Of a stretch of 42,179 nt of DNA, positions 2,886-42,167 are shown in pieces. Both the position numbers and the translations under genes were made by a program. The stretch lies in the NCBI GenBank assembly GCA_964624615.1, contig CAZUZM010000003.1:3241-45419 (forward strand), read 5' to 3'. This DNA comes from an uncultured Anaerolineaceae bacterium (GTDB lineage Bacteria; Chloroflexota; Anaerolineae; Anaerolineales; Anaerolineaceae). The notes below the pieces were generated by a model. It saw nothing but the letters and a program-made list of their open reading frames with translations, searched no databases and had not been told where the DNA came from. The stretch's first letter is position 1; the number at the start of each line of letters is the position of its first letter.

Positions 2886-2988
2886 GTTGGGCAGGTTTAC
2901 CGGCAACACCCAGAGATACCTCCTTACCGCTGCTTCCTCTCGGACCTGACGGGGTTCGTAGGGCTCTGCCGCGCCGGTCCCGCCCAAC
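2886..2988 (-). ncRNA. ffs: Signal recognition particle RNA (small bacterial 4.5S type)
   Basis: The minus strand reads GUUGGGCGGG...CCCGUCAGGUCCGAGAGGAAGCAGCGGUAAGG...CCUGCCCAAC. GUCAGGUCC-GAGA-GGAAGCAGC matches the conserved domain IV with a GNRA tetraloop (E. coli has GUCAGGUCCGGAAGGAAGCAGC). The 5' and 3' ends pair (UUGGGCGGG / CCUGCCCAA), and AUUUUCUU follows the 3' end. Confidence 0.85.
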
Positions 2989-3564: not shown

Positions 3565-3782
3565 CGTTTCACCCACAATAGTACTAATGCTATAGCAATC
3601 AAAATAAAAGCGACCAAAATAAGAAGTGGTACAAGTTTGACTTGTCGGGCATGACTTTGGTGTGCCTGGGTGCCGGCGTCCATTTGCTCTTGGTTTGAGG
3701 AGACTTCGCCTTGTAACTGGTACCACCAAGCACGTTCGCAGTATAAAAAAGACCCTAATTCTGACGCTTTTATCGTTCGCAT
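3561..3782 (-). CDS. Cas4-like N-terminal fragment (first cluster Cys) with C-terminal TM helix
   Basis: IKASELGSFLYCERAWWYQ resembles the Cas4/DUF83 N-terminal Cys motif. LVPLLILVAFILIAIALVLLWV is a TM helix. The TGA stop (3563-3561) overlaps the ATG (3564-3562) of the next ORF as ATGA. Confidence 0.6.
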   Translation of the reverse strand: MRTIKASELGSFLYCERAWWYQLQGEVSSNQEQMDAGTQAHQSHARQVKLVPLLILVAFILIAIALVLLWVKR

Positions 3783-7076: not shown

Positions 7077-7731
7077 ACGCTTCGATCCCGCCCTGCTTCC
7101 ACCCTTTCCGACCCTGGAATTTGAAAGCGCGCTATGGCAGGAGGGAAATCGGATCGTCGCAGGCGTGGATGAAGCCGGCAGAGGTGCCCTGGCAGGACCG
7201 CTTTATGCCGCGGCCATCGTTTTACCACCCGATGAACCTGACATAAGTCAAGTTCTTTTTGACGTGCGCGACTCCAAACAACTCAAACCTTTTGACCGTG
7301 AGCGCTTGGCACCCATCATCACCGAGGTCGCCTTGGACTACGCCATTGCCTGGCTCGAAGCGGATGAAATTGACGCTTTAGGCATGGCACAAGCCGGGCG
7401 ATTGGTCTTTCAAAAGGCTTTGTCAGGACTAAAAATAAAGCCTGATCATGTTTTAGTAGATTATTTCACCATCCCAGCACTTGAAATAGGTCAAACCAGT
7501 TTGGTGAAAGGCGATCAGCGCTCCTTGAGCATCGCCTGCGCATCTATTTTGGCAAAACAAGCCCGTGACGCGCGCATGGTTGAAGAAGCCAAACGCCATC
7601 CCGGCTATTTTCTCGCCGAAAACAAAGGCTATGGCAGCGCTGAACACATCCAAGCCATTCAGACTTTAGGACTGGATGCCATTCACCGCAAAAGTTTTTG
7701 CGAAGGCTTGATGCAACTTTCATTATTTTAG
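7069..7731 (+). CDS. rnhB: Ribonuclease HII
   Basis: AGVDEAGRGALAGPLYAAA and ASILAK motifs. I chose the GTG start at 7069 (VPKRF), which overlaps the GT2 stop by 8 nt. The track ATG at 6994 lies deep inside the upstream gene. Confidence 0.9.
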   Translation: MPKRFDPALLPPFPTLEFESALWQEGNRIVAGVDEAGRGALAGPLYAAAIVLPPDEPDISQVLFDVRDSKQLKPFDRERLAPIITEVALDYAIAWLEADEIDALGMAQAGRLVFQKALSGLKIKPDHVLVDYFTIPALEIGQTSLVKGDQRSLSIACASILAKQARDARMVEEAKRHPGYFLAENKGYGSAEHIQAIQTLGLDAIHRKSFCEGLMQLSLF

Positions 7732-10973: not shown

Positions 10974-12617
10974 CTAACCCTCAAACACCTTGTCGACAAT
11001 CTGCTTGGCTTCTTCTTGTATCCTGGCAAGGTGTTCAGCGCTTTCAAGGCTTTCAGCATAAATTTTATACAAATCTTCCGTACCCGAAGGACGTGCGGCA
11101 AACCAGCCCTTTTCTGTAGCGACTTTCAACCCACCAATTGGCGCATGATTGCAAGGGGCTTCGGTCAGCTTGGCAATAATGGGGTCACCTGCCAAGGTGT
11201 CTGCCTGAACCTGATCTGGCGACATTTTAGCCAAAATCTGCTTTTGGGCAACCGTCGCTGGCGCTTCAAAGCGTTTATACCAGCTGCCTCCCAGCTCCGC
11301 TTCAATTTCCTGGTAGCAAACACCCGGGTCCTTGCCGGTTACTGCCAAAATTTCCGCAGCGAGCAGGTCAAGTATGATGCCGTCTTTATCCGTCGTCCAG
11401 GTTTTACCGTTCAAACGCAGGAAAGACGCGCCTGCGCTTTCCTCGCCACCAAAGCCAACCGAGCCGTCTTCCAACCCAGGCACAAACCATTTGAAACCCA
11501 CCGGCACTTCGCAAAGCTTTCGTCCCAAGCGTTTGGTCACCTTATCAATCACCGAACTAGAAACCAAGGTCTTGCCCACCATGGCGTCCTGGCTCCATCC
11601 AGGTCGGTTTTGGAAGAGATAATCCACCGCCACGACCAAATAGTGGTTGGGATTCATTAAACCCACACCGGGTGTCACAATGCCATGGCGGTCATAATCG
11701 ACATCATTACCAAAGGCAACGTCAAATCGGTCCTTTAGCGCAACCAAATTTGCCATGGCGTAAGGTGAGGAACAGTCCATGCGAATTTTGCCGTCATAAT
11801 CAAGGGTCATAAAAGCAAAAGTCTGGTCCACACGTTTGTTGACGACCTCAAGGTTCAAACCGTATGTCTCAGCAATCGGCTCCCAATAGGCAACCCCGGA
11901 ACCACCCAGAGGGTCCACGCCAATACGCAAGCCGGCGTCCGCAATCGCCTGCATATTAATCACATTCTTGAGGTCGCGTACATAGGGCATAATCAGGTCT
12001 ATCATCTGCGTGGTGTCTGCCGCCAACGCTTTTTTCAATGACCAACGCTTGACGTCACACATACCGCCGCTAATAATTTCATTCGCCCTGTTTTGAATCC
12101 ACTTGGTTGTTTCGGTATCAGCCGGCCCAGCCGAGGGTGGATTGTACTTAAAGCCACCATCCTCTGGCGGGTTATGCGAGGGTGAGATAACCACACCATC
12201 ACCAATATTGTCTGGATGCGCCATGTTCCACGCCAAAATCGCATGGGAAATCACCGGCGTAGGCGTGTATTGGTTGCCCTGATGCAACCGCAGTTCCACA
12301 CCATTGGCAGCAAAAACTTCAATCGCACTGTAAAGTGCCGGCTCAGACAAAGCATGCGTATCCATACCCATAAAAAGCGGACCCTTTATGCCTTGTGCCT
12401 GGCGCAATTCGGCAATCGCCTGGGCAATCGCCAAAACATGGTCTTCGTTAAAACTGACGCTCAGCGAGCTACCGCGATGGCCAGACGTGCCAAAGCTAAC
12501 CGCCTGGGAAGCCACGCCGGGTTCAGGCTTTTGGGTGTAATAGGATGCCACGAGTTTGGGCACATTGACCAAAACGTCGATGGGTGCACGTTTTCCTGCA
12601 AGGGGATGAATGTTCAT
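10974..12617 (-). CDS. pgm: Phosphoglucomutase (alpha-D-glucose phosphate-specific)
   Basis: The active-site serine lies in TSGHRG. Also [22 protein letters not shown] and GEESAG. Confidence 0.93.
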
Positions 12618-13216
12618 GCTTCCACCTCTTTCTCAAAGCCACCTTCGTGAATGATTTCTTGAATAGGCTTGCGTTGATTGGGTTGCTCGCGAACCTGGTT
12701 GTATTCCGAAAGCTCGCTGGGGTCACCATGATGTCCGATAGCAATCATGCACTGCGGCACAAAGCGCTCCGGCACATTCAACTCGCTTTTGGCGCGGTCA
12801 TAACTAAACCCGGCCATCGGATGCGCCACTAAATCCATGATACAAGCTTGCAACAACAAGTTTTCCACGGCTAATCCCGTATCAAAAGCATGCCAGGGAT
12901 TGGGCTTTCCGTTTGCCAAAAGCGAATCAGAGAACGCCACAATCAAAACCGCAGCTTTGGCACACCATTCTTGGTTCCCTGGTGCTAGCAACGAAAAGAA
13001 CTGCTCAAAGGCGGGGGTACCGCGATAGGCGTACAAAAAGAGCCTGTCCTGGATGTTTCCTGCGGAAGGTGCCCAGCGTGCAGCTTCAAAGAGGGTCATC
13101 AGTTGGTCAGGTTCGAGCGGCTCACCGCTCATGGCACGCGGCGACCAGCGGGTCAACAAAAGGTCTTGGATGGGATAATCTGGGCTTCGAAAGTCTTTAA
13201 CATCAAGTTTGGTCAT
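12614..13216 (-). CDS. Nitroreductase family protein
   Basis: RWSPRAM...[12 protein letters not shown]. Its stop overlaps the pgm start as ATGA. I preferred ATG 13216 (MTKLDV); GTG 13237 is an alternative. Confidence 0.85.
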
Positions 13217-13261
13217 GATAACAAGGTCCTTTCTCACTAAATCCCTGAATCTAAGCTTAAT

Positions 13262-13300
13262 AAAAAAGAAAGCTTGCCATCAAAAGCTGATCGCAAGCTT
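13262..13300 (-). terminator. Rho-independent terminator of the SIMPL-domain gene
   Basis: The minus strand reads AAGCTTGC, a 15-nt loop, GCAAGCTT, then TCTTTTTT. Confidence 0.6.
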
Positions 13301-13366
13301 GTTTTCTTTAGTCTGCCAAAATGTCAGGGTCTTCATGCCCTAATTCTAGCATATTTCAAAACAGTT

Positions 13367-14140
13367 TTACTTGATGCTATAGGTCAAAGTCACTTCATAG
13401 GTCACCACAATTTGACCTGCAGAAATCGGCACGGAGGTATCCATAGCCTGTTTTGCCTCACCGCCACCCATACCATACATCGGGTAAGGTTGAACATAGG
13501 AACTGTTGGTCACATTGATGGTAACGACTTGGTCGATGCTCACACCCATCGTTTCAGCAACAGACTTGGCTTTTGCTTCAGCATCTTTGAGTGCCAGGTC
13601 ACGGGCTTGTTCCTGCGCAGCTTGCCGGTTATCAATATCAAAGCTGATGCCGTTGATTTGGTTCGCGCCGGCTTTGATGGCAGCATCCAGAATCTCGCTC
13701 AGCGATTTGAGGTCGCGCACAGTAACATAAAGGGTATTGTCCACGTTATAGGTTACCCCAATGACTTCGTTGGTCATATGGTCATACTGTTGCATAGGAT
13801 AAACGTTGAAGTTAGCGGTCTGGATATCCTTTTCTTCAACGCCCTTTTTCTTGAGCGCTTCGGTGATGGCCAGGGCTTGTTTGTTGTTTAGGTTAACAGC
13901 CTCGCTCACTTCTTTGGCTTTGCTGTTCACACCCACATTAATGCGGGCAATATCCGGCACCAGGGTAACCATACCGTTACCACCAATGGTGAGCGTTCTA
14001 ATAGTTTGTGATGTTCCCAAGGCTTCAACCTTCTTTCCTGAATTGTCTGTTGGAACTTGTTGCAAAGGCCCACATGCGGCAACAAGTGCGGTGATGATGA
14101 CGACAACGGCAAGGAGCCGCATCCAATTTGAGTTTTTCAT
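13367..14140 (-). CDS. SIMPL (DUF541) domain lipoprotein
   Basis: Lipobox LVAACG. TLTIGGNGMVTLVPDIARINVGV and the C-terminal PISAGQIVVTYEVTLTYSI resemble the SIMPL family. Confidence 0.75.
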   Translation of the reverse strand: MKNSNWMRLLAVVVIITALVAACGPLQQVPTDNSGKKVEALGTSQTIRTLTIGGNGMVTLVPDIARINVGVNSKAKEVSEAVNLNNKQALAITEALKKKGVEEKDIQTANFNVYPMQQYDHMTNEVIGVTYNVDNTLYVTVRDLKSLSEILDAAIKAGANQINGISFDIDNRQAAQEQARDLALKDAEAKAKSVAETMGVSIDQVVTINVTNSSYVQPYPMYGMGGGEAKQAMDTSVPISAGQIVVTYEVTLTYSIK

Positions 14141-14267
14141 TTCTTTCTCCTGTTAATGACTTTCTTGTCTTGTTAACGAATCCTTAGCCGCTTTTGTTCC
14201 AAAATCTTAAAGCCAATCGCTTATAATAGAGCCATGCTGTTTGGCATGACCGTTTTTAGGAAAAATT

Positions 14268-15443
14268 ATGCCCATCAATTACGCTCACATTCATAATAAT
14301 CTCGATCATTTTGCGGATTTAACCCAAAAAAAGCTGGAAGAGCAACGTCAGGCGCTTGAAAAAGTGTTGTCGCAAATCGAAACAGCAGCGAGTGTACAGG
14401 CTGAGGTCGAAGCAGCCGTCCAGCGTGCGGAACAACAAGCTGGCAACCTCTATACCGCCAAGCCCAGCCACGAAGCCATGCTGGCAAGCTTCTCCTTGCC
14501 CGAATGCCCCAAATATTACACGCTCATCGCCGCCGATGGTTCGCAAATCAACCCCAGCCGCCACCGTGCCTTGCAGTTTTGCTTGATCAATGTCGGCTTG
14601 ATTCACGTGGAACATGGTTCTGGCGAGACACCCGTTCAGCAGGTCTTTAGCAAAATCCTCGACCAAGACGAACTCTATACCAACGAAGGGACGCTCATCG
14701 GCGAAGAAGAAGTCGCCCTACACCGTGACCTCTTGGAACGCATCTATTTGATGGAAGCTTTACCAGTAGCTATTGAAAAACCAACCATCACCCTCACCGA
14801 CGGGCCTTTGGAAGTCTTTACCGGACCAACCCTGAGTGGTGAACGCCGGCAAAAGGTACAAGAACAAAACCAGACCATCGAGCAACGCATGCAAGCGCTG
14901 GGCGTCATCAACGCTGGTTACATCGATAAACCAGGCGCGGAAATGATTAACCGCATGCTTGACCTTTTTGCCCAAAGTCAAAGTGCTTCCGACCGCCCTT
15001 ACGAAGCCAAAAAGCGCGCCAATAAAGGTGTCAGTGACCTGGCTATTTTCCAAAACCGTCTGGCACCAGGTGAACGGTCAGCATTATTTTATGTTATTTC
15101 CAAGAACGAGGCCAAACAAGAAGCCACAAAGGTCTGCTTTTTCTTACTCAATGTCAGCAACGATCCCGATGAACCCTGGCTGGCGCGGGTAGAATGCCCC
15201 GCCTGGCTTGCTGAAGACCCGGATACAATAGACATCCTGCACGCCGCGCTTTACCGGGATGCCCAGGTGCTCGACGCCATGCCCTATCCCTATGTGCTCC
15301 ATCGCGCGCACGAATTGGCGGTGGTCAATGTCGCCGAACATGACGAGGTTGAAGAAATGCTTATGTCCCGTCTGGACCATGACCAATTACCATCGGGTAG
15401 CATGTCGCACAAACAAAGTCTAAAATCACTCTCAAAGAGGTGA
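14268..15443 (+). CDS. NurA-like 5'-3' nuclease with N-terminal coiled-coil extension
   Basis: IAADGSQ (catalytic Asp), LTDGPL, GYIDKPGA and the C-terminal PYPYVLHRAHELA resemble NurA-domain motifs. Confidence 0.75.
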   Translation: MPINYAHIHNNLDHFADLTQKKLEEQRQALEKVLSQIETAASVQAEVEAAVQRAEQQAGNLYTAKPSHEAMLASFSLPECPKYYTLIAADGSQINPSRHRALQFCLINVGLIHVEHGSGETPVQQVFSKILDQDELYTNEGTLIGEEEVALHRDLLERIYLMEALPVAIEKPTITLTDGPLEVFTGPTLSGERRQKVQEQNQTIEQRMQALGVINAGYIDKPGAEMINRMLDLFAQSQSASDRPYEAKKRANKGVSDLAIFQNRLAPGERSALFYVISKNEAKQEATKVCFFLLNVSNDPDEPWLARVECPAWLAEDPDTIDILHAALYRDAQVLDAMPYPYVLHRAHELAVVNVAEHDEVEEMLMSRLDHDQLPSGSMSHKQSLKSLSKR

Positions 15444-15445
15444 GC

Positions 15446-16057
15446 ATGAACGAAGTCAAAACCATCCCAATAGGCAAACTCTTGCGCGCCGACAACCGCC
15501 AGTTTGTCGCCGGCTGTCGTGTTAAAGAGCTGGAAACGCCCGCGTTAGGCGGGCTGGTCAAAGCCAAATTGCAAGACCAAAGTGAGGTTTATGGCATCAT
15601 CACACGCATCAGCATCAGTGATGATGGGCTGGTGCGTCAATTGGCATCGGGCACGAGCATTCCGCCCGAATACACCGCCGACAACCGTCACAATCGCAAC
15701 CTGCCGGTGGAGATTGAAGTGCTTACATTGGGTTATGCCCGTGATGGACAGATTTTTCACCAACTTCCGCCCCGCCCACCCCTGAGTTTGGACGTGCTTT
15801 ACCTCTGTGATGATGATGACTTGGTCGCTTTTACCAAACATGGCAACAATCAAGCCTATCTGCGGCACATCCTGCGCCTGCAAGACATGCCCTTGGAAGA
15901 GGTTTTAGTGAGTCATCTCAAAAAAACAAAACAAGCCCACGATGCCCACGGCAACCCAGCTTGGTACACCCAGGCTTGCGAGCGCTTGATTATCTTATTG
16001 CGCGAAGATTACCCACGGTTGACCGCCGTGCTGGATGCCCTTTCAGCGATGGACTGA
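15446..16057 (+). CDS. Hypothetical protein, N-terminus resembles a HerA HAS-barrel
   Basis: ATG 15446 follows an AAGAGGTGA RBS, and the alternative GTG at 15440 overlaps the nurA stop. PIGKLLRADNRQFVAGCRV...GGLVKAKL...VYGIITRISIS parallels PIGFVSGG..LQVRLMV...GAFVVMDS...FYGLVTDLQLG in the downstream HerA. No Walker motifs are present. Confidence 0.55.
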   Translation: MNEVKTIPIGKLLRADNRQFVAGCRVKELETPALGGLVKAKLQDQSEVYGIITRISISDDGLVRQLASGTSIPPEYTADNRHNRNLPVEIEVLTLGYARDGQIFHQLPPRPPLSLDVLYLCDDDDLVAFTKHGNNQAYLRHILRLQDMPLEEVLVSHLKKTKQAHDAHGNPAWYTQACERLIILLREDYPRLTAVLDALSAMD

Positions 16058-16064
16058 GGTAAAA

Positions 16065-17801
16065 ATGACAGACACAAACCAAAACACCGCCTTGACTCAA
16101 ACCATGCAAAACCAACCCATCGGCTTCGTTTCCGGCGGTGGGCTTGAAGCCAACCTACAAGTTCGCCTGATGGTGCCCGCCCAAGAGGTGCAAAGCGGCG
16201 CCTTTGTGGTGATGGACAGTGGCAACTGGCGCTTTTATGGCCTGGTCACCGACCTGCAACTCGGTGCGGTAGACTTGCAATACGCCAATCAGCTCAACAT
16301 CAAGCGTTTTGACCCCGCCCTGTCTGCGTTGCTGAATCAACAGACCCTGTTCACCAACCTGGCTGTCATGCCAGCACTGATGTTGGAACGCGGTCCCGAG
16401 CTTGATTCACCGGACTATAGCGCCTGGCGTGCTTCGCTAACCAAGGAACCCAACCCCATGCCGGTCAAAACCGTACCTGACCATCACACCCCGGTGCGTT
16501 TAGCCGACAAAGCCGACATTGCAGAAATTTTCGGCGAAGAAAGCAAAACCGTTTTCCGCGTGGGCGAAACCCGCGAACAGGGTCATGGCGTTTGCCTGGA
16601 CCTCGAAAAGTTCGTCCAGCGCAGCTCTGGCATCTTTGGCACCACCGGCTCAGGTAAATCTTTCCTGGCACGCATGATTTTGGCAGGCCTCATCCACGCC
16701 GATAAAGCCTCCACGCTCATTTTTGACATGCACAACGAATATGGCATCGACTCAACCAGCTCTGATTCTGGTGCGGCTGTGCCTGGGCTAAAAGGCAAAT
16801 TTGATTCGAAAGTCCGTTTGGTTGGTCTCGGCGCGGATAGCAGTTTTCACAGCCGCCAACCTGATTTCACCCTTGAAATCGCCCACAGTGACATCATGCC
16901 CGAGGATATTCTGCTGCTCGCTGAGACACTCAACCTGACTGATGCCAGTAATGTAACCCTGGATGCACTTTACAGTAAATTTGGCGATAAATGGTTTACG
17001 GCTTTCAAAGACATGAAAATAGGCGCTGGCGCTTATGAAAATGATGAAAACGGCAAGCAAGTCCCCACCGATGGCAGCGTTGCCGCCTGGGCGAACGAAG
17101 CCGGCGTGCATGTCAAATCTGCCGAAGCCGTCCGCCGAAAGCTAGAAGAGTTGATGAACCGCAAGTATCTGGTCGCTGAACCCGCCCGAAACGCCTTGGA
17201 TGACGTCATCAACAATTTGCAAAACGGACGTCATGTGGTGCTTTCTTTTGGACATTATGAGAAAGATATCGACTACTTGATGGTTACTAATCTGATTACC
17301 CGGAAAATACGTGACACCTGGGAAAAAGCCACAAACAAGTTCCACAGCAAAGCCAAAGACGCCGCGGAACCTAGACCTTTGGTCATCGCCGTGGAAGAAG
17401 CTCACAAACTACTCAATCGTGAGATGGCTAACCAAACCATTTTTAGCACCATCGCGCGCGAAATGCGCAAATACTATGTAACGCTTTTGATTATCGACCA
17501 ACGCCCCTCACAAATCTATGATGAGGTCATGTCGCAGCTTGGCACACGCATCTCAGCCTCACTGGGTGACGAAGATGATATCAGTGCGGTACTTTCTGGT
17601 CTACCGGGACGTTCGAGCTTGCGTGGCATGCTCGCTAAGCTACAGCCGAAAGAAGAAGTGCTCATGCTGGGTTGGGGTGTGCCTATGCCCATTCCCATCC
17701 GCTCACGCCGCTATGACCAGGTCTTCTGGCAAGAACTTTTGGGTAAAGACGACAAAAAAGTCACCTCCGCCGCGGACGCCAAGAGAAACCTGGGCTTTTA
17801 A
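16065..17801 (+). CDS. HerA/FtsK-superfamily hexameric ATPase (DUF87-type)
   Basis: Walker A GIFGTTGSGKSF, Walker B VIAVEEAHKLL, and LLIIDQRPSQI. The N-terminus is HAS-barrel-like. ATG 16065 follows a GAGG RBS right after the upstream stop. Confidence 0.85.
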   Translation: MTDTNQNTALTQTMQNQPIGFVSGGGLEANLQVRLMVPAQEVQSGAFVVMDSGNWRFYGLVTDLQLGAVDLQYANQLNIKRFDPALSALLNQQTLFTNLAVMPALMLERGPELDSPDYSAWRASLTKEPNPMPVKTVPDHHTPVRLADKADIAEIFGEESKTVFRVGETREQGHGVCLDLEKFVQRSSGIFGTTGSGKSFLARMILAGLIHADKASTLIFDMHNEYGIDSTSSDSGAAVPGLKGKFDSKVRLVGLGADSSFHSRQPDFTLEIAHSDIMPEDILLLAETLNLTDASNVTLDALYSKFGDKWFTAFKDMKIGAGAYENDENGKQVPTDGSVAAWANEAGVHVKSAEAVRRKLEELMNRKYLVAEPARNALDDVINNLQNGRHVVLSFGHYEKDIDYLMVTNLITRKIRDTWEKATNKFHSKAKDAAEPRPLVIAVEEAHKLLNREMANQTIFSTIAREMRKYYVTLLIIDQRPSQIYDEVMSQLGTRISASLGDEDDISAVLSGLPGRSSLRGMLAKLQPKEEVLMLGWGVPMPIPIRSRRYDQVFWQELLGKDDKKVTSAADAKRNLGF

Positions 17802-17803
17802 CG

Positions 17804-20386
17804 ATGATTCCCAAGAAACTAACCCTCAGTGGCTTCACCTCTTATCGCAATCCGGTAACGCTCGACTTTTCAGCATTCAGCATTGCCTGCGTTTCAGGAT
17901 CAAACGGCTCGGGCAAGTCCTCGATTTTGGATGGCATGACCTTCGCCCTGTATGGCAAAGCACGAAAATCAGATGATTCCCTCATCAACTCTGCCAGCGA
18001 TAAAGCCGAAGTAACCCTCGACTTTGAATATGAAGGACAGACCTACCGCGTGACGCGTTCCCTAACCCGAGGGAAAAGCAGCACGCTTGATTTTTACATC
18101 TACAACCCCGAACCGGAAGAAGAAGGCAGGCACTGGAAGGTGCTCACCGAACACACCATCGGAAACACCAACGCCAAAATTGAGCGTACCTTACGCCTGG
18201 ACTACGAAACCTTCGTCAACGCCTCGTTCTTTTTGCAAGGTAAAGCTGATTCTTTTGCCACCCAAAGACCGGCTGACCGCAAGCGCATCCTTGCCAGTAT
18301 TTTAGGGCTCAATCAATGGGACTTATACCTTAAAGCCAGCAAAGAGCGCAGCACCCAGGTCCGCCTGGAACTCGAAAGGATTGACGCGCGCCTTGCTGAG
18401 ATTCAAAGCGAACTCGATCAGGAAGAGGAACGCAAGGCACGACTGGAAAGCCTGGAAGATAAACTCAAACTCGCCAAGGCCGAGACCAGTGTTTTACAAG
18501 CCCAATTGGATACCGAGCGTGCTAAACAGGAGAAGCTCAAAGAAAAACGCCAGTATGTAGCGCTCCTAAAGCAAAATTTTGACCGTGCCGAAAGCAATCA
18601 CGCCGACACCCTGGCGCGTCGTGACGAACGCCAGGCACAACTGAACAGCTTTAACGAGGTGTTGGCAAACGCTGATCAAACGGAAAAAGACTATCAGACC
18701 TGGCAAGAAGCCCGCAAAGCACTCCAAGCCTTCGACCAGGTTTATGAGCAATTCAAGCCCATGGATGGCAAGCGGCAGGACCTGCTCAGGCAAATCGAAC
18801 TCAAAAAACAATCTCTACAACAAGCTCTCCAGCACCTATTGGACGAAAGAAGAAAGCTTGAGGATGTTCTCAACCGCAGCTTGGACGATCAAAAACAATT
18901 GGATGCCCTGCAGCCAAAAGTTGACTCCTTACAAAAGGAAATCGCCCTTGGGGAAACCCTCCAGGAAGAGATCAACCAGCTCATTGGATTGAAATCCACG
19001 TTGGAAAGCGAGAACAAGAGCCTGCGCCAAAAGATGAATGACCTCAAAGAACGCCAGCTCAAGATTGGCGCGGTGGAAGGCGCGCAATGCCCCTTCTGTG
19101 ACCAAGCGCTTTCAGCGGAGCATCGCCAAAACCTGATTGACAAAATCCAAACTGAAGGTACCAGCCTTGGCAATCAGTTCCGCGAAAACCAAGATAAAAC
19201 CGAAAATGCTGAGCAAGCCCTCAAAGTCAAGAAGCAAGCTTTGCTCAACCGCAATGAGCACCAAAGCACTTTGCAGCATTTGTTAAGGGAAAAAGACCGG
19301 CTGACACAGCTGTTGAACCAAGTCGAAACGCAGAAAAAAACTTTTGAAGCCGAGCGCGCTCCAAAAATCGCTGAATTAGAAGCCCTACTAGAGACTGAAG
19401 CCTTCATGCATGAAGAACGCGCGGCGATTCAAAACATCGAAAAAGAAATCGCCACCCTGGGCTATGACGCCAACGCCCACGCCAGCATCCGTCAAGAAGA
19501 AGCCCGAGCCCGCCTCGCCGAAGCGGCTTATCACGACCTGGGCAAAGCGCGCAGTAGCGTGGAACTGATCAAACAGAACCTCAGCGAACTCGAAACCAGT
19601 CTGATCGGCTCTGAAAAAGAGCGCCAGAGTCAGGAAACAGCCTTTCACCAGGCTGCTGCCAGCCTGGCAGAAGAAGAAGCCCAACTTCCAGACCTTTATC
19701 AACTTGAACGCGATTACATGCTCCAAAAAGAAAAAGAAGCTGCTTTGTTACGCGAACATGGTGGCGCAAGTCAACTGGTCAAAAACCTCGACACCCAACG
19801 CATGCGACAACTAAGTCTCCGTGAAGATCAAGAAGCCCTGATGCAAAATCTGGGACAACTGCGCAGCCTGGAAACCGCCTTTGGCAAGGACGGCGTGCCC
19901 GCGATGCTCATCGAACAAGCGCTGCCCGAACTGCAGGAACAAGCCAATGAGGTTTTGCACAAACTAAGCGACCACACCATGAGCGTCACTTTTAGCACCC
20001 AACGGGAGTACAAAGACAAAAAGCGCGAGGACAAGCGTGAGACTTTGGATATTCTCATCAGCGATGGGTCTTCTACCCGCGATTACGAAACATTTTCAGG
20101 CGGCGAAGCTTTTCGAGTCAATTTTGCCATCCGCTTAGCCCTTTCACGGGTGCTCAGCAGGCGTGCTGGTGCAAAGATGCAGACCTTGGTTATTGACGAA
20201 GGTTTCGGCAACCAAGACCGCCACGGTCGGCAGCTGTTGATCGAAGCCATCAACATGATTCAAGATGACTTTGAGAAGATTTTGGTGATTACCCATATTG
20301 AAGAACTCAAGGACCAATTCCCTAATCGTGTTGAGGTCAGCAAAGATGCTATGGGTTCCTCAACCCTGGATTTAGTCTTGGGATAA
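17804..20386 (+). CDS. Rad50/SbcC-family SMC-like ATPase with central zinc hook
   Basis: Walker A GSNGSGKSS. A long heptad-rich middle region carries CPFC (codons 429-432 of 860) at its exact midpoint. Signature motif FSGGE, Walker B LVIDEGFG, and ITHIEEL. Confidence 0.85.
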   Translation: MIPKKLTLSGFTSYRNPVTLDFSAFSIACVSGSNGSGKSSILDGMTFALYGKARKSDDSLINSASDKAEVTLDFEYEGQTYRVTRSLTRGKSSTLDFYIYNPEPEEEGRHWKVLTEHTIGNTNAKIERTLRLDYETFVNASFFLQGKADSFATQRPADRKRILASILGLNQWDLYLKASKERSTQVRLELERIDARLAEIQSELDQEEERKARLESLEDKLKLAKAETSVLQAQLDTERAKQEKLKEKRQYVALLKQNFDRAESNHADTLARRDERQAQLNSFNEVLANADQTEKDYQTWQEARKALQAFDQVYEQFKPMDGKRQDLLRQIELKKQSLQQALQHLLDERRKLEDVLNRSLDDQKQLDALQPKVDSLQKEIALGETLQEEINQLIGLKSTLESENKSLRQKMNDLKERQLKIGAVEGAQCPFCDQALSAEHRQNLIDKIQTEGTSLGNQFRENQDKTENAEQALKVKKQALLNRNEHQSTLQHLLREKDRLTQLLNQVETQKKTFEAERAPKIAELEALLETEAFMHEERAAIQNIEKEIATLGYDANAHASIRQEEARARLAEAAYHDLGKARSSVELIKQNLSELETSLIGSEKERQSQETAFHQAAASLAEEEAQLPDLYQLERDYMLQKEKEAALLREHGGASQLVKNLDTQRMRQLSLREDQEALMQNLGQLRSLETAFGKDGVPAMLIEQALPELQEQANEVLHKLSDHTMSVTFSTQREYKDKKREDKRETLDILISDGSSTRDYETFSGGEAFRVNFAIRLALSRVLSRRAGAKMQTLVIDEGFGNQDRHGRQLLIEAINMIQDDFEKILVITHIEELKDQFPNRVEVSKDAMGSSTLDLVLG

Positions 20387-22390: not shown

Positions 22391-24883
22391 CTATAACAAG
22401 TCCGGTGGATTGACCTCCACCCGCCAGTCGCGCAAGTTAAGCCCTTCCAGGACCACATTCGGATTGGGACCCCGTAAAACGATTTGCCAGCGGTATTGCC
22501 CTGCCCATTTATGGAAATAACAAGGTGCGGGACCCATAAGGTAAGTGCGTTTCAAAGCCAACGTCTTGATATTCTCATTCAAAACGTTCGCCATCGCTTC
22601 AGCTTCCTCTTGAGCCTTGCTGTCAAAGCGATGTTGATAGACCAAACGCGTCAAAAAACTGAAGGGCGGGTAGCCTAACTCACGTCGAAACGCCAATTCC
22701 TGATGATAAAAACCTTCAAAGTTGTGATCCGCGGCAAATTGGATGACGCTATTTTCGGGTTGATAACTTTGCATGATAACCCGACCACCCAACGGGCTGC
22801 GTCCCGCCCGTCCGGCAACTTGCGTCAACACCTGAAAAACCCTTTCACTGGCACGATAATCGGGCAAGTTCAAGCCCAGTTCCGCCAAAATAATGCCCAC
22901 CAGGGTCACTTTAGGGAAGTCCAACCCTTTGGCAAGCATCTGGGTGCCAATCAAAACATCCGCACGATGGGCACTGAAGTGCGACAGAATCAGGTCGTGG
23001 TCACCCTTGCCTCGTGTGCTTTCAGCATCCCACCGCAATAACCTTGCCGTTGGAAACGCTTTTTGTACCATATCTTCCAATTGCTCGGTGCCCATGCCCA
23101 GTTGGCGTATCTGGCTACCACCACATTGGGGACAGGTTTTGGGCAACTGTCGGGTGTAGCCACATTGGTGGCACAACAAGCCCTGGCGTGAGCGGTGGTA
23201 GGTCAGCGGCGCTTCATCCCGTGGACAGCGTATGACGTGTCCACAAGTGCGGCAAAAGACATAGGTGGTACTGCCTTTACGATTGAGAAAGAGGATGGCT
23301 TGTTGGCCGGCATCAAGCGTTTCTCGCAGCGCTTGTTTGAGCGCGCGCGAAAGGGGTTGGCGATTGCCAGCGATCAGCTCTTGGCGCATATCAACAATAT
23401 GAACGGGTGGCATGACTGGCGCGTCAGAGGAAGGCTTACCCTCGTCAACAGAATGGGTATCCTTGTGCTCCAAATGTGCTGGCACGCGTCGTGGCAGACG
23501 CAAAAGCTGCCAGTCGCCCTTTTCAGCTTTGTAGTATTGAGTCACACGTGGGGTAGCACTACCTAGAAGAAGCGTAGCATCACAAATGCGGGCATAAGCT
23601 TCAGCCGTTTCAACGGCATGATAGAAGGGTAATCGCTCAGTTTCGTCATAAGAGTCGTTGTCACACTCATCAATGACAATCAGCCCTAAGCGTTCAAGAG
23701 GCATGAACAACGCCGAGCGTGAGCCGATGATGATTTTCAAATCACCTTGCCGTGCTCTTCGCCAGGTGTCGTAGCGCTCACCGTCAGAAAGTTTTGAATG
23801 ATATATACCAACTTGGTTGGGAAAACGCGCCATGAAACGGCGCACGGTTTGGGGTGTCATTGCAATTTCGGGCACCAAAACCAAGGCTTGCTTGCCCTTG
23901 TTCAGTTGCTCTTGCACCGCGCGCATATAGATTTCTGTTTTTCCAGAACTGGTTACGCCATGCAACAAAAAGGGTTTTGCCTTGGAGTTATCTAACTGTG
24001 GCAAAATGGATTCCCAAACCTTCTGCTGATCAGCGGTAAGTATCGGTGGTTTTGCCTCGGGCAGCTCGTAATCTGCCAGAGGATTCCGCCAAACCTCGGT
24101 TTCATTGAAATGAATCAAGCCCATTTCTGCCAAGAGGGTCAAGTCCGCATAGTTTGCACCGGTTTGGGCATAAATCCAAGAGAAATCCATGGGCATCGCG
24201 TCACTCGCCAGCCGTTCCAAAACCGCCATTCGCCTAACGCGCGTGTTTTCCTGGCTGCCCAAAGTGTCAGAGTCCAGCCTCGCAATCGACTCCACCGGCA
24301 CTGACAGGGACGCCGTGCGCACTGTTTTGCTTGTGACACTCGGCGGCGGCAAGACGTTTTGGCTGCTAATCAATCCTTGCTGCCGCAAAGCACGCATCGC
24401 GCGACGCCAATCGACCTTGGGCATGGCATGGCTTATCTGAGCGCCACGCAAAGTACCGCGCCTTCTCAAAAGCTGAACCAAGCGTTTTTGAGCAGGCGAA
24501 AGCCCAGCCAAAAGAACATCGTTAATTTCAATGTCTCGTAAACGATAAAGAACATCCGCCCGGCGCGAAAGACCGATTGGAATCATCAAGCCCACACATG
24601 CACCCAAGGGCGCCAGGGTATGCACCGAAAGCCACTGCGCCAGCGCCAGTTGTTGATCGGTGAGCACCTGCTCTTCAGAAAGAGGCTCAATAATATCCTT
24701 GATATCTTCAAAGTCCGGGGCCGCGTTCTCTCCTAAAACCACCCCTTGTGCCAACCGCGAACCAAACGGCACCAAAACCAAACTGCCCGGCTTTATGACA
24801 GCTTCGAATTCAGGCGGCACACGATAGGTATAACTTTGATCAATTTGGCTTATGTTGATACTGACATCAACGAAAGGGCTCAC
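22391..24883 (-). CDS. priA: Primosomal replication-restart helicase PriA
   Basis: LLHGVTSSGKTE (Walker A), VIDECD, the Cys-rich insert CRTCGH...CHQCG...CPQCGG, and AGRAGR. GTG start. Confidence 0.93.
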   Translation of the reverse strand: MSPFVDVSINISQIDQSYTYRVPPEFEAVIKPGSLVLVPFGSRLAQGVVLGENAAPDFEDIKDIIEPLSEEQVLTDQQLALAQWLSVHTLAPLGACVGLMIPIGLSRRADVLYRLRDIEINDVLLAGLSPAQKRLVQLLRRRGTLRGAQISHAMPKVDWRRAMRALRQQGLISSQNVLPPPSVTSKTVRTASLSVPVESIARLDSDTLGSQENTRVRRMAVLERLASDAMPMDFSWIYAQTGANYADLTLLAEMGLIHFNETEVWRNPLADYELPEAKPPILTADQQKVWESILPQLDNSKAKPFLLHGVTSSGKTEIYMRAVQEQLNKGKQALVLVPEIAMTPQTVRRFMARFPNQVGIYHSKLSDGERYDTWRRARQGDLKIIIGSRSALFMPLERLGLIVIDECDNDSYDETERLPFYHAVETAEAYARICDATLLLGSATPRVTQYYKAEKGDWQLLRLPRRVPAHLEHKDTHSVDEGKPSSDAPVMPPVHIVDMRQELIAGNRQPLSRALKQALRETLDAGQQAILFLNRKGSTTYVFCRTCGHVIRCPRDEAPLTYHRSRQGLLCHQCGYTRQLPKTCPQCGGSQIRQLGMGTEQLEDMVQKAFPTARLLRWDAESTRGKGDHDLILSHFSAHRADVLIGTQMLAKGLDFPKVTLVGIILAELGLNLPDYRASERVFQVLTQVAGRAGRSPLGGRVIMQSYQPENSVIQFAADHNFEGFYHQELAFRRELGYPPFSFLTRLVYQHRFDSKAQEEAEAMANVLNENIKTLALKRTYLMGPAPCYFHKWAGQYRWQIVLRGPNPNVVLEGLNLRDWRVEVNPPDLL

Positions 24884-33420: not shown

Positions 33421-35154
33421 TTATATCTGAATTGTACCTGTTAATTCAGAAACTGAGGTAAGAATGTCTTTAGCAGATTGTAAAATGCTTTCAGAGTCAC
33501 CGCCCAACATGCTGGCGAGCTCTCGCTCGCGCTCCTCACGGGACAGTTGCTTCACTTGGGTAACGGTGCGCGAGTCACTTTCCGCCTTGCTGGCTTGGAA
33601 GTGCTGGTCAGCAAACGCCGCCAGCTGAGGCAAGTGGGTCACGCAAAGCACTTGATGCTCACGCGCCAACTGCCAAAGCATTTTGCCAACCGTCATGCCG
33701 ATGCGCCCACCAATACCACTGTCGATTTCATCAAAAACAAGGGTTGGAATTTGATCCGCTTCTGCCAAGACATGCTTAAGCGCAAGCATTAGACGTGATG
33801 TTTCACCACCGGAGGCAATTTTTGCCAACGGTTTGAAGCCTTCGCCAAGATTTGTTTCGATGAGAAATTCCACCTGATCAATGCCGTGTTGGTCAAAAGC
33901 GAGGTTCGCGCCCTCAATAGTCAAGCCATTTGCGTCTGCCTTGTGGTGAATCTGAACCTGAAACGTTGCTTTTTGCATCTGCAAGGCAGCTAGTTCCTGG
34001 CTAATGGCGCTTTGCATCGTTTTGGCGGCAGCAAGCCTCGCTTTACTTATTCTCAAAGCTTTTTTAGAAAGACTTTCCTTAACTCGCTCTAATTTTTGGC
34101 TTACTTCTTTTATCTGTTCGTCTATAGAGTCGATATTCTCCAACTCCACGCGGCTCTTTTCCAAATGGACTAAGGCGCTTTCAATCGACCCGCCGTATTT
34201 CTTCTTGAGCAGCTGCAAGGTGTTCAAGCGTTCTTCGACTTGATCCAAACGTCCCGGCTGAAACTCCATGCCTTCCAGATAAGCTCGCAAGTCATAAGCG
34301 ATGTCCGCCAGGGTGCTCAGCGCTTCTTCAGCCCGCGTAGCGAGGTCTTGCGCTTCGGCGTCGATGCGCGCCAGATCATGCAAAAAATGTGCTGCCTGCC
34401 CTACCAAGTCTGTCGCTGCCATTCCTTCGGCAGAGCCTTCATCAATCGCCATTAAGGCTTGTTGGCTGAGAGAACTGAGGGCTTCGGCATTCACCAGACG
34501 CGTGCGCTCTGAACGCAGACTTTCGTCCTCGTCGGTTTGAGGTTTAGCGCTTTCTATTTCCTGAATTTGGAAGCGCAACATATCCACCCGCTGAGCGGCC
34601 TGTTTTTCGATGTCTGTCAGCTTGTTAAGCTCCTCTTTTAAGCTCAACCAGGTTTTGTAGTCCGCCTTAAAGGTATCTAAATCTTCACTGAGGTGTGCAT
34701 ACCGATCCAAAAGCTCGCGGTGGCTGCGCACATTAAGCAAACTGAAATGCTCGGACTGCCCGTGGATATCCGCAAGGAGTGCGCCAAGTTCAGCTTGAAG
34801 ACTCACGCTCACCGCACGCCCATTGACCCGGGCAATGGTGCGGCCTTCGGCACGAATTTCCCGCCCTAAAGTCAAAAAGTCTTCATCATCCCAAAGACCT
34901 TCTTCTTCCAACAAGGCTTTGACCAGCGGTTTTGTGGCGTCGTCAAGCTCATACACGCCCTCCACGATGGCTTTGCTCTCGCCTTGACGAATGATGGTGG
35001 TATCCATGCGCTCGCCAAGGATGGCACTGAGCGAATCCAAAACAATAGACTTACCAGCGCCGGTTTCACCGGTAAAGATAATCAAGCCTGGCTTAAAATC
35101 CAGGCTCAACTGCTCGATGATGGCAAAGTTTTGGATGTGCAGCTCTTTGAGCAT
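33421..35154 (-). CDS. recN: DNA repair protein RecN
   Basis: MLKELHIQNFAII...FTGETGAGKSI, a coiled-coil middle region, ASGGE and LVFDEIDSGIGG. Confidence 0.95.
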   Translation of the reverse strand: MLKELHIQNFAIIEQLSLDFKPGLIIFTGETGAGKSIVLDSLSAILGERMDTTIIRQGESKAIVEGVYELDDATKPLVKALLEEEGLWDDEDFLTLGREIRAEGRTIARVNGRAVSVSLQAELGALLADIHGQSEHFSLLNVRSHRELLDRYAHLSEDLDTFKADYKTWLSLKEELNKLTDIEKQAAQRVDMLRFQIQEIESAKPQTDEDESLRSERTRLVNAEALSSLSQQALMAIDEGSAEGMAATDLVGQAAHFLHDLARIDAEAQDLATRAEEALSTLADIAYDLRAYLEGMEFQPGRLDQVEERLNTLQLLKKKYGGSIESALVHLEKSRVELENIDSIDEQIKEVSQKLERVKESLSKKALRISKARLAAAKTMQSAISQELAALQMQKATFQVQIHHKADANGLTIEGANLAFDQHGIDQVEFLIETNLGEGFKPLAKIASGGETSRLMLALKHVLAEADQIPTLVFDEIDSGIGGRIGMTVGKMLWQLAREHQVLCVTHLPQLAAFADQHFQASKAESDSRTVTQVKQLSREERERELASMLGGDSESILQSAKDILTSVSELTGTIQI

Positions 35155-39316: not shown

Positions 39317-40354
39317 ATGCTCATCACAAAAGATCTGCTCATTCAACTCACCAAAGACTACCTCAACCGCCTTTTGCGCCAAAACAAAGAGATTGTTGCC
39401 GCTTATCTCACCGGCTCAATGCTCCAGGATGAACCGCTATTGGGTGGCAGCACGGATATCGACCTGGTTATCGTGCATAAAGAAGAACCTGCGGTGGGAC
39501 GGGAGATTCGGCGCGTCAAGAGCAATATTTCATTCGATATCGTACACCATCATCAGTCGCGCTACACCTTTCATCGCCGTATGCGCCAGGACGCCTGGCT
39601 AGGCTCCGCCTTACGCAACCATGACGCCATCATGTATGACACCGACCATTGGTTGGAATACATTCAAGCCGGTGTTGACTCACAGTACGACAGTCCAGAA
39701 AACACCCTCGCTCGTGCTCTCAAGTTTTCGGATGACGCACGCGCCTATTGGTTTGAGTTGGACGATGATGACGAAGCACCTTTTAGTGAATGGCTCAACG
39801 TTTTCTTTAAAGCTGTTGGCAGTGCCAGCAATGCCATTGCCGCACTGAGCGGTCCTGGGCTCACCCAACGTCGCTTTATGCTCGAGTTTCCTGCTCGTGC
39901 TGAAGCCGTGAATCAGCTTCCCCTAGTGGGTGATTTGGCACGCTTGATTGGCAATGAGCAAATGTCACCAGAAAACTATCAAAAATGGCGCCCTGTATGG
40001 GCGTTTTATATGGATCGCTGTGGCGAAAGCCCTGACTGCCCGCCCAATTTACATAAAGCGCGCAAAGCTTACTTTCTGGAAAGCTGTGACGCTCTGGTCG
40101 ATTCCGACAGGATTCATGGTGTTCTTTGGCCCATGCTTGAAACCTGGCGACAGATTGACCTTTGCCTCGGGGACAACCTTTTTGAGGAAGACTGTGAAGA
40201 TACGCCCACCACAGCTACCCAGCGGTGGCATCAGTTTGCTGGCGAAATGGGCTTTAGTTCTGAGAATAAAGAAGATAAGGCACATCAACTTGGTAGCTAC
40301 ATCGAGAAAGTTAATGATGTTTTGGAAGACTGGAAGCGCGAGTACGGACTCTAA
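39317..40354 (+). CDS. Pol-beta-type nucleotidyltransferase-domain protein, unknown function
   Basis: AAYLTGSMLQ...GGSTDIDLVIVH gives the G-S and DxD pattern. I did not recognise the remaining ~280 aa. ATG 39317 follows a GGAG RBS. Confidence 0.55.
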   Translation: MLITKDLLIQLTKDYLNRLLRQNKEIVAAYLTGSMLQDEPLLGGSTDIDLVIVHKEEPAVGREIRRVKSNISFDIVHHHQSRYTFHRRMRQDAWLGSALRNHDAIMYDTDHWLEYIQAGVDSQYDSPENTLARALKFSDDARAYWFELDDDDEAPFSEWLNVFFKAVGSASNAIAALSGPGLTQRRFMLEFPARAEAVNQLPLVGDLARLIGNEQMSPENYQKWRPVWAFYMDRCGESPDCPPNLHKARKAYFLESCDALVDSDRIHGVLWPMLETWRQIDLCLGDNLFEEDCEDTPTTATQRWHQFAGEMGFSSENKEDKAHQLGSYIEKVNDVLEDWKREYGL

Positions 40355-40365
40355 ACCATGAAAAA

Positions 40366-40636
40366 TGTGGATAATACGCTAAAAACTGTGGATAACCCCA
40401 CAGTTTTTGTTTATTTTGCCGATTAGAACCCCCAAAAGACTGTGGATAAGTCGTGCAAACTTTGTGGGTAACTTTGCCTTGATTTTTACAATGCTTTTCC
40501 TGCTGGGGATATGTGGAAAACCCCTCGTTTTGTCCATTCTTGAATGTGGAACAATTATCTATCCAAATCTTAACTCTTCAACGAGAGAAAACAAAGTCAG
40601 GGCATAAAAATGCAAGTGTTATCCACACCATCCACA
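40366..40636. promoter_or_regulatory. DnaA-box cluster (candidate oriC or DnaA-titration site)
   Basis: Perfect TGTGGATAA at 40366, 40387 and 40441, and perfect TTATCCACA at 40619. Near-matches are TGTGGGTAA (40463), TGTGGAAAA (40512), TGTGGAACA (40545) and CCATCCACA (40628). An AT-rich tract follows at 40637-40688. Confidence 0.6.
40381..40408 (+). terminator. Rho-independent terminator that embeds a DnaA box
   Basis: AAAAA-CTGTGG-ATAACC-CCACAG-TTTTT, 27 nt after the upstream stop. Confidence 0.65.
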
Positions 40637-40688
40637 GCCCCTACTAATAATACGACTTTAACTCATTTAATAAGATAATGACATTAAG

Positions 40689-42167
40689 TTAAGGTTTTGC
40701 CCAATACACCAAAGGGAAATATATCTTCACTTTTTGATCTGTTGAATTCAGCCTTAATCTGTAAACAAATCCAAGGTCTTCTCTATTGTTTAGCTGAGGG
40801 TCAATGGATAGACCCTGGATGTAAACCTGCAACCCCTCCGGTGGCACTTCCGAAATGGGTATGCTAAATGAAAAATCCATCAGTCGTGGGTTTTGTTCGT
40901 TTGGATTTAGGTTGACAATTGGGATTTTCGTTGCATCCCTGTGCCAAGGCGGAAGGTTAATCGAGAAGTGGGCTGCACTCACATAAGGTTCCGGTCGAAA
41001 ATTGCGATACAGGGTGTTTGTATCGAGGATTCCCGAAATCTCAAAAGACTGCCTTTCACTATCCTTTTGTAGTTCTACATCACGCACTTCTGGACCAGCT
41101 GAGTATTCCAACGGTATTGGCAATGATTTCAAGGCATTTAGTAAGCTTTGCATTGCAGGATTTACCAGTCTACTTTCAAAAACATTACAGGTTGGAATGT
41201 CTCCACCACCCATCTCACTGCTAATGCGGTAAAGCAAAGCGGTGATGCCCAATGTGTCATGCGCGTAATCGACCAGGGAGCCTGATTGTAACTCAACCAG
41301 TTCGGCGTTTCCGGGCATTGGCACTGCGCTTGCGCCATATAGTATTTTGTTAGCCAGGATTTGATAGGCTTCAAAACCTTCAGGCAGATGCGTTTTGGAA
41401 TACAGGTAAGGCGAGATCAAGGCATCTTGCCAGCCTTCCAGGTTAATAAGCAAAGCGGCGTGGGGATTGGTTTGGGTCTTAGCTTGTAAATAAGCTGCGA
41501 TCGCTTGCGTTTCCGGTTCTGAAGCTGGTGCAAGTCCTGGATGTTTGGTATGACAAGCGTCTGTGGGATACTCTTGCCATTGAAACGAGAAGTTGTGTTC
41601 AAGCGAAACACCACCATTTTCACCAGTACAGGTGCCAGGATTGGTGTTCTTGGTCCAGGTAATTGAGTCGGCAACGCCATCACCTAACGCCTGAGATTCT
41701 GCTCTTTCGCGTCCATCGGGATTTGCGAGAAAAATGAAATGAATTGCGAAGAAATCACGCAAAAAAGCTATTTCATCTTGAAGCGACGCCTGAGTCAAAA
41801 TAAATTCTGCAAAACGCAGATTGATTTCTGTTGCCGCAAAGGACTTAGCTTTGAGTCCACTCACCAAAAAAAGGCTGGGTTTAGACTCAGGTTGGTTTTT
41901 ATCTTCTATTGTCATGGCGATAAGGTCATGGCCCGAACCGAATTGAGCCTTTTCCCATGAATCACCGATATCTTCGACAGTTACCCATTGCGGGTGCTGG
42001 TTTTCGAGATGTAATGCAGCTTGGTAGATTGATTCAAGGTTACGATAGCAATTAAACCCTGGAATGGTAGCCGTCTTTGCTGTTACAGGTGCTTCTGATA
42101 TGGGACATGTTGAAAAGAGGATGATGACAATAATAAAAAAGAACAACCGCAAAAGTTTTTTGTTCAT
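40689..42167 (-). CDS. Secreted M14 carboxypeptidase-like protein
   Basis: Signal peptide MNKKLLRLFFFIIVIILFS. FLANPDGRE and GVSLEHNF resemble the M14 NPDG and GVDLNRNF motifs. The zinc-ligand positions look substituted (see findings). Confidence 0.65.
   Translation of the reverse strand: MNKKLLRLFFFIIVIILFSTCPISEAPVTAKTATIPGFNCYRNLESIYQAALHLENQHPQWVTVEDIGDSWEKAQFGSGHDLIAMTIEDKNQPESKPSLFLVSGLKAKSFAATEINLRFAEFILTQASLQDEIAFLRDFFAIHFIFLANPDGRERAESQALGDGVADSITWTKNTNPGTCTGENGGVSLEHNFSFQWQEYPTDACHTKHPGLAPASEPETQAIAAYLQAKTQTNPHAALLINLEGWQDALISPYLYSKTHLPEGFEAYQILANKILYGASAVPMPGNAELVELQSGSLVDYAHDTLGITALLYRISSEMGGGDIPTCNVFESRLVNPAMQSLLNALKSLPIPLEYSAGPEVRDVELQKDSERQSFEISGILDTNTLYRNFRPEPYVSAAHFSINLPPWHRDATKIPIVNLNPNEQNPRLMDFSFSIPISEVPPEGLQVYIQGLSIDPQLNNREDLGFVYRLRLNSTDQKVKIYFPLVYWAKP

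Follow-up and report, generated by a model that had tools for sequence, protein, structure and literature searches.

A conserved DnaA-box cluster with a BUS-type unwinding module is the probable chromosomal replication origin of an Anaerolineaceae bacterium

Background

The closest described counterpart of the element reported here is incC, the unwinding region of the Bacillus subtilis chromosomal replication origin (oriC), which consists of DnaA boxes 6 and 7, a GC cluster, DnaA-trios and an AT-rich 27-mer and is the prototype of the basal unwinding system (BUS; PMC6669920; Pelliciari et al. 2021, PMC8287927). Tandem boxes with a stronger upstream copy are the commonest form of BUS, and the spacers peak at 10-13 bp, 13 bp being the commonest length across bacteria (PMC8287927). 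The oriC of B. subtilis is of the bipartite type, arranged around dnaA, and is situated between dnaA and dnaN; that of Escherichia coli, located between gidA (mnmG) and mioC, is compact and undivided, is not linked to dnaA, and is influenced by transcription of these two flanking genes. Dense groups of DnaA boxes outside the dnaA region are also represented by datA and DARS1/2 of E. coli and by six DnaA-box clusters of B. subtilis; these serve to titrate or recycle DnaA, and a trio and unwinding module is absent from them. For the Anaerolineae, no paper describing an origin was found in the literature, and the only catalogued origin that we found is the DoriC entry ORI94030346 of Anaerolinea thermophila UNI-1, which belongs to the same family as the DNA studied here. 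We analysed a stretch of 42,179 nucleotides from an uncultured Anaerolineaceae bacterium (GenBank assembly GCA_964624615.1, contig CAZUZM010000003.1, positions 3,241 to 45,419; hereafter, the window), in which a cluster of DnaA boxes with adjoining AT-rich DNA occupies the intergenic region 40355-40688. All positions below are those of the window unless a locus is named.

Results

The intergenic region (334 bp) is non-coding and lies between the 3' ends of two convergent genes (39317-40354 on the plus strand, upstream; 40689-42167 on the minus strand, downstream), and a search of Rfam gave no match in it. We regard 40355-40700 as probably the oriC of this bacterium, with a probability of roughly 0.8, because of its sequence anatomy, its conservation in relatives, the rarity of such an arrangement elsewhere, a minimum of duplex stability and the polarity of GC skew. 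The elements on which this assignment is based are as follows.

40366..40374, minus strand: perfect DnaA box (TTATCCACA), the first of the gene-proximal array; invariant in an alignment of six relatives
40387..40395, minus strand: perfect DnaA box, 21 bp (two helical turns) past the first; forms the 5' arm and loop of a hairpin
40441..40449, minus strand: perfect DnaA box, from the box scan and the alignment of relatives
40463..40471, minus strand: DnaA box with one mismatch (TTACCCACA), 22 bp past the preceding box
40504..40520, minus strand: two abutting weak boxes, ATATCCCCA (two mismatches) and TTTTCCACA (one mismatch), with starts at 40504 and 40512
40545-40553 (minus strand) and 40559-40567 (plus strand): two weak boxes with two mismatches each, poorly conserved in relatives; either could be a chance match
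40619..40627, plus strand: BUS box A, a perfect DnaA box (TTATCCACA) pointing to the unwinding element; invariant in relatives
40628..40636, plus strand: BUS box B, a weaker box abutting box A (CCATCCACA; two mismatches, ATCCACA core intact)
40637..40640, plus strand: GC clamp GCCC; box B and the clamp add up to the 13 bp that separate box A from the first trio
40641..40652, plus strand: DnaA-trios CTA CTA ATA ATA (bottom strand 3'-GAT GAT TAT TAT-5')
40641..40700: AT-rich DNA-unwinding element, running into the final codons of the convergent M14 carboxypeptidase gene

Altogether, 40355-40688 was found to contain ten boxes with no more than two mismatches (four perfect, two with one mismatch and four with two), of which seven are on the minus and three on the plus strand. 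An earlier sequence-only reading of the window had reported eight, six in one direction and two in the other; these numbers were slightly too low, the dense cluster that they described is real, and the four perfect boxes that it claimed were recovered at 40366 (-), 40387 (-), 40441 (-) and 40619 (+). The AT-rich segment of about 50 bp that it placed beside the boxes was found as well, and the 48-nt string that it quoted corresponds exactly to 40641-40688. In the whole window, boxes with at most one mismatch numbered 19, against 7.9 expected from shuffled sequences (none of 100 shuffles reached 19); six of them fall inside 262 bp at the cluster, which also contains all four perfect boxes of the window. 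The chance expectation for the intergenic region is about 0.05 boxes with one mismatch or none, and about one of the four boxes with two mismatches could be due to chance. In 1.31 Mb of flanking DNA from related Anaerolineae the background density was 0.25 boxes per kb and no 400-nt segment contained four or more, and inside the cluster sites the usual number of boxes was five to seven.

The right end of the region was compared with the rule of PMC8287927 for BUS, which comprises a box with at most two mismatches, an optional tandem second box with at most four mismatches, a spacer of 0-16 bp from the box to the first trio (mode 13 bp, of which about 4 bp are GC-rich), and a run of three or more DnaA-trios whose central base on the trio strand is A ((.A.){3,}; consensus 3'-GAT-5'). 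In the window, TTATCCACA (40619-40627), CCATCCACA (40628-40636), GCCC (40637-40640) and CTA CTA ATA ATA (40641-40652) follow one another and are succeeded by AT-rich DNA. The box at 40619 has no mismatch and the tandem box at 40628 has two; the spacer, 40628-40640, is 13 bp long and ends with GCCC; and four trios are present, after which the pattern is broken by CGA. Judging from their sequence and position, the trios would be the single-strand binding sites of a DnaA-ATP filament.

The order, orientation and spacing of these elements are those of B. subtilis, in which the upstream box is likewise the stronger one and an AT-rich tract comes next. The B. subtilis module reads 5'-TTATCCACA AATCCACA GGCC CTA CTA TTA CTT, and that of the window 5'-TTATCCACA CCATCCACA GCCC CTA CTA ATA ATA; in the supplementary table of PMC8287927, where sequences are read 3'-5', B. 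subtilis is given as AATAGGTGT TTAGGTGT CCGG GATGATAATGAAGATGAT, and the window in the same notation becomes AATAGGTGT GGTAGGTGT CGGG GATGATTATTAT. According to that table (PMC8287927), box A corresponds in orientation and position to B. subtilis box 6, and the order and orientation of the module in the Deinococcus and Geobacter entries are as in the window. Unlike the bipartite B. subtilis origin, the element in the window is a single compact unit (about 330 bp) flanked by the genes for a nucleotidyltransferase and a peptidase, and dnaA is absent from the 40 kb to its left and the 10 kb to its right. It resembles the E. coli oriC in being compact, apparently single and unlinked from dnaA, and in its oppositely oriented box arrays, unilateral unwinding element and box-to-trio module (PMC8287927, table); it differs in the absence of 13-mer repeats and in the convergence of the flanking genes. 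The region contains no GATC site, and therefore Dam/SeqA-type control would be absent, unlike in E. coli. With datA, DARS1/2 and the six B. subtilis clusters it shares a dense group of boxes outside the dnaA region, whereas the trio and unwinding module, with conserved spacing, sets it apart from them.

The stability of the DNA was also considered. Among the 40-mers of the window, 40641-40680 is the second least stable (dG -41.0, vs mean -55.3 and standard deviation (sd) 4.1), which places it 3.5 sd below the mean; 0.03% of the 40-mers are equally unstable, and the unwinding element begins exactly at the first trio.

For the comparison with relatives, one genome per species was scanned, and 80 loci encoding relatives of the upstream gene were obtained (34-86% identity; source names, Anaerolineaceae or Chloroflexota). 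Note that these loci share synteny and are not fully independent. The densest box cluster within 10 kb on either side begins 0-90 bp past the stop codon of the upstream gene, hereafter the marker gene, in about 75 of the 80, and no second box cluster was found within 10 kb on either side in any locus. The unwinding module was carried by all 78 related loci with enough sequence, in 77 of them directly after the homologue of the marker gene. In close relatives (68-86% protein identity; alignment of six), the spacers have diverged and the boxes and the terminal module are invariant; TGTGGAA-TTGTGGAAAA, from the abutting weak boxes at 40504..40520, is also kept in relatives. Throughout the family the minus boxes are gene-proximal and the plus boxes distal, and spacings of 20-22 bp form the predominant class (131 pairs of successive boxes). 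The cluster position is kept in distant lineages as well as in the cultured Levilinea saccharolytica (L086), and the module is also present in more distant lineages whose flanking genes differ (L092, L093 and L095). Megabase contigs with the cluster include JAXGXE010000001.1 (near 191 kb of 2.04 Mb), JAXGXZ010000001.1 (near 773 kb of 2.30 Mb), JAXGYK010000001.1, JAXGKP010000001.1, CAVRIZ010000005.1 and CAVYEQ010000003.1. The sequence-only reading had proposed conservation of the box cluster in related genomes as a test; the cluster is conserved across the family, in favour of an origin.

When the loci were scanned for BUS with a strict rule, 12 of the 78 were recovered, with no background match in 2.44 Mb of strand sequence. 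With the rule of PMC8287927 plus a GC clamp, 34 of the 78 were recovered on the correct strand and at the correct end, against 0.009 expected per region, and in the loci outside the 34 the same module has two clean trios or is shifted in phase. All 78 loci fit an anchored profile (consensus TTTTcCCca-N-TaTCCACAG-cCc, then CTAcTACTaa): the clamp is 4 bp long in 77 of them, the first CTA carries nearly 2 bits per position, and the AT content climbs from 0.54 to 0.84 at the unwinding element.

In one locus, L082 (Anaerolinea sp.; 11006-15290), the module lies 4.3 kb from the marker gene, with three minus-strand open reading frames (ORFs; 11641-14937) between them, and adjoins spoVS, with fewer boxes. 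Given this separation, the module is an independent element, not a part of the marker gene.

Two side observations concern the unwinding element. In many loci (for example L015-L020, L031 and L046) an AT-rich motif, (T)ACTACTTAATTAA, often CTATTACTTATTACTACTTAATTAA, is present 10-25 nt past the first trio, and this repeat-like signature may represent the unwinding repeats of the family. In L010 (11370-11396) the contig end right after the unwinding element is an Illumina adapter, AGATCGGAAGAGCACACGTCTGAA, an assembly artefact of the public genome.

GC skew was computed for the window extended with a contig from Logan (L001), which lengthens the sequence rightward by 8.2 kb; contigs near-identical to the window (99.6-99.98%) were found there in several runs. 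The skew was -0.046 over 40 kb to the left of the cluster and +0.046 over 9.7 kb to its right. Across the loci the skew averaged -0.030 to the left of the cluster and +0.013 to its right, and the right value exceeded the left in 49 of 55 loci (Wilcoxon p = 1.4e-9). Because third positions on the coding strand are rich in C and the two flanks differ in gene orientation, a strand correction was introduced; weighted strand-corrected regression on 899 genes in 82 loci gave a side effect of +0.026 (bootstrap 95% confidence interval 0.015-0.037), equivalent to left and right values of about -0.032 and +0.020. The change of polarity is moderate and of the origin type, not the terminus type; it is supportive, not decisive. 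For read coverage, the change to be expected across 50 kb is about 1%, too small to be detected. The idea of a replication terminus was set aside, as the skew polarity is the wrong way round for one and DnaA boxes are unexpected there.

As for dnaA and dnaN, neither was detected by tblastn, Pfam or the gene list in the window and its 8-kb extension, as the sequence-only reading had stated for the window. With tblastn, no dnaA was found within 10 kb on either side in the 80 loci, nor in the 50 kb around the cluster of the window; the query was the E. coli DnaA, with a sensitivity that is reduced and still adequate for this conserved protein. The dnaN gene was found once among the 80 loci (L081), and its product was then used as a probe. 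Around dnaN, 0-2 boxes were counted in up to 21 kb (two neighbourhoods scanned, and L081). The distance between dnaN and the cluster is about 260 kb on contig_1527; on the contig of the L095 lineage it is 4.9 kb, and dnaN there is co-directional and points away from the cluster. The cluster is thus dnaN-proximal in some lineages and distant in others. Locating both genes had been suggested as a check of the sequence-only reading: dnaN was located (L081, contig_1527 and L095) and dnaA was not. Linkage to dnaA or dnaN is common in origins without defining them, and it was not seen here.

Further features of the region and its neighbours are as follows.

39317..40354, plus strand: the marker gene, for a 345-aa Pol-beta-type nucleotidyltransferase of the kanamycin nucleotidyltransferase type; a conserved positional marker
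40380..40419, plus strand: terminator-like hairpin and T tract (11-bp stem, 40380-40409), built around DnaA box 2
40580..40585: A-N-CGAG motif, role not assigned; invariant among close relatives (alignment columns 241-246)
40689..42167, minus strand: M14 zinc carboxypeptidase gene, the downstream neighbour, convergent with the marker gene

The real start of the marker gene is the ATG at 39317 (the 361-aa ORF starting from a TTG was not matched). The 345-aa protein has an invariant GS...DID motif, the GS...DxD of Pol-beta nucleotidyltransferases, and a weak match to PF18765; its structure model has a pLDDT of 92.7, and the best PDB matches are 1kny, ANT(4') and LinB, with modest TM scores of 0.38-0.49. 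A functional tie between this protein and the origin was considered and dropped, given the generic aminoglycoside/lincosamide-type nucleotidyltransferase fold and the separable module of L082. The M14 carboxypeptidase gene is syntenic in 35 loci; elsewhere an ABC sugar transporter gene or spoVS takes its place.

The hairpin folds with -15.9 kcal/mol as RNA (z = -5.5), is present only in the clade of the window, with compensatory changes there, and is probably the intrinsic terminator of the 345-aa gene. As DnaA box 2 lies inside it, there could be mutual interference between the binding of DnaA and the termination of transcription. The A-N-CGAG motif could be a site for an accessory protein; TCGAG or ACGAG strings recur in other lineages upstream of the module, about 40-60 bp before the tandem boxes. 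In L092 and L093 a GC-rich palindrome, CCACCCCCCATATATGGGGGGTGG, followed by a T run is located about 150-190 nt past the marker gene within the box cluster, with ATATATGG-type strings recurring near it; it could act as a terminator or bind a protein within the origin.

The rest of the window is ordinary chromosome, with genes for tRNA-Pro, the signal recognition particle (SRP) RNA and NAD kinase, dnaK, rnhB, priA, recN, glgC, ABC transporter genes and a NurA-HerA-Rad50-type cluster. The genes rnhB (6994-7731), priA (22391-24883) and recN (33421-35154) all lie at most 35 kb from the proposed origin, so that its surroundings are enriched in DNA-metabolism genes; the position of dnaN relative to it varies by lineage. 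The cluster at 14268-20386 encodes NurA (14268-15443), a 205-aa protein without assigned function (15440-16057), HerA (16035-17801) and a Rad50/SbcC-like protein with a zinc hook (17804-20386), an archaeal-type set for DNA-end resection in a Chloroflexota genome, in which no Mre11 was recognised. The AT-skew spike at 17-22 kb (0.2-0.32) is due to the Rad50 coiled coil. The 5' end of a listed 353-aa ORF (1926-2987, minus strand) overlaps the SRP RNA gene (2886-2985, minus strand), so the upstream part of this ORF is probably not coding. A stand-alone gene for a Cas4-like PD-(D/E)XK nuclease is present at 3040-3729 on the minus strand; no CRISPR array or other cas genes were seen in the window.

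Discussion

An origin with a DNA-unwinding element was the first choice of the sequence-only reading, and the BUS module, the conservation across the family and the change of skew sign support it. We suggest that DnaA would fill the gene-proximal minus boxes, phased at about 21 bp, and the distal plus boxes, and that the terminal tandem pair (40619-40636) would anchor a DnaA-ATP filament. Crossing the GC clamp of 4 bp, the filament would continue along one strand over the DnaA-trios (40641-40652); the AT-rich element, which is very unstable (40641 to about 40700), would then open and allow the helicase to be loaded, and replication would run both ways from what is presumably the single origin.

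Several observations weigh against this assignment. Control splits within the flanks gave skew effects of 0.016 and 0.008, vs 0.026 at the cluster; in the window alone, the strand-corrected skew goes from -0.093 to only -0.030 and never becomes positive; L092 and L093 show little or no skew shift; and the loci, which share synteny, are not fully independent. The genes converge on the cluster, plus-strand coding being 66% on the left and 44% on the right, which is the opposite of co-orientation with replication; in the left 40 kb of the window, 55% of the coding sequence is co-oriented. Transcription of dnaN on contig_1527 would be head-on to replication. In none of four Anaerolineae contigs was dnaA beside dnaN, and dnaA was located in no genome. 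Finally, the catalogued origin of A. thermophila UNI-1 is at about 0.4 kb of the genome (ORI94030346; PMC8287927, supplementary table), and its BUS candidate (420-460) showed no similarity to any of the loci. That candidate has a box, AAAAGGGGT read 3'-5', with two mismatches and a 16-bp spacer, and scores 7 vs 25 for B. subtilis (PMC8287927). In a homology search for the marker gene seeded with a protein of an Anaerolinea sp., UNI-1 was not among the 120 matches listed. The sequence-only reading had itself noted the convergent genes and the missing dnaA and dnaN as arguments against oriC: both hold as observations, and neither disqualifies the region.

The foremost alternative, which we consider unlikely, is that the principal origin lies elsewhere, for example beside dnaA, and that the cluster is a secondary or auxiliary site, a relic, or the unwinding half of a split origin. 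The lack of a located dnaA, the DoriC position at about 0.4 kb in the A. thermophila type strain, and the existence of bipartite origins in B. subtilis and Helicobacter pylori (PMC3479198) would fit such a picture. However, the cluster is complete in itself, comprising a DnaA assembly array, BUS and an unwinding element; a relic would not retain a near-invariant clamp and first trio across 78 species; the A. thermophila BUS candidate is weak; and the skew changes sign at the cluster.

Somewhat less probable again is a DnaA-titrating or -reactivating locus like datA, DARS or the B. subtilis clusters, the other possibility raised by the sequence-only reading, or a regulatory site controlled by DnaA. 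A dense cluster away from dnaA and between the 3' ends of two genes would suit such a locus, and the B. subtilis DnaA-box clusters are also intergenic; moreover, box 2 overlaps the transcription terminator, so that DnaA could modulate read-through. However, titration loci are without the box-clamp-trio-AT module that is present here with exact spacing, and a change of GC-skew polarity is not expected at them. As for regulation, the terminator overlap is limited to one clade, and the region, lying between two 3' ends, has no promoter for DnaA to regulate. A chance build-up of box-like 9-mers in AT-rich intergenic DNA, or a mere terminator region, would account for the poorly conserved boxes at 40545 and 40559 and for about one two-mismatch match in 334 bp, and is effectively refuted by the four perfect and two one-mismatch boxes in 262 bp (about 0.05 expected), by their retention across 78 species while the spacers drift, and by the absence of a like cluster in 1.31 Mb.

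Conclusions

In its mechanism the proposed oriC is of the usual DnaA-dependent type with a canonical BUS, and it implies no new principle. Its novelty lies in its placement: it is not linked to dnaA, and throughout a class that has been little studied a conserved marker gene tags it. Extending this to the whole class, we propose tentatively, at somewhat less than even odds, that the Anaerolineae have a single origin unlinked from dnaA (and mostly from dnaN), anchored to the 3' end of the kanamycin nucleotidyltransferase-like gene, and that ORI94030346 is misplaced. If this is true, the marker gene and the box-clamp-CTA module form a sequence tag that would locate the origin in any metagenome-assembled genome of the Anaerolineae, which are abundant in anaerobic digesters, activated sludge and sediments and are known mostly from such genomes. 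An origin defined by sequence would orient assemblies and give a start coordinate, anchor coverage-based estimates of growth rate (peak-to-trough ratio, iRep), and flag a possibly wrong entry in the origin catalogue. The box-clamp-trio module is also extended to a deep-branching class with very tight conservation of spacing, which supports the view of the module as ancestral in bacteria.

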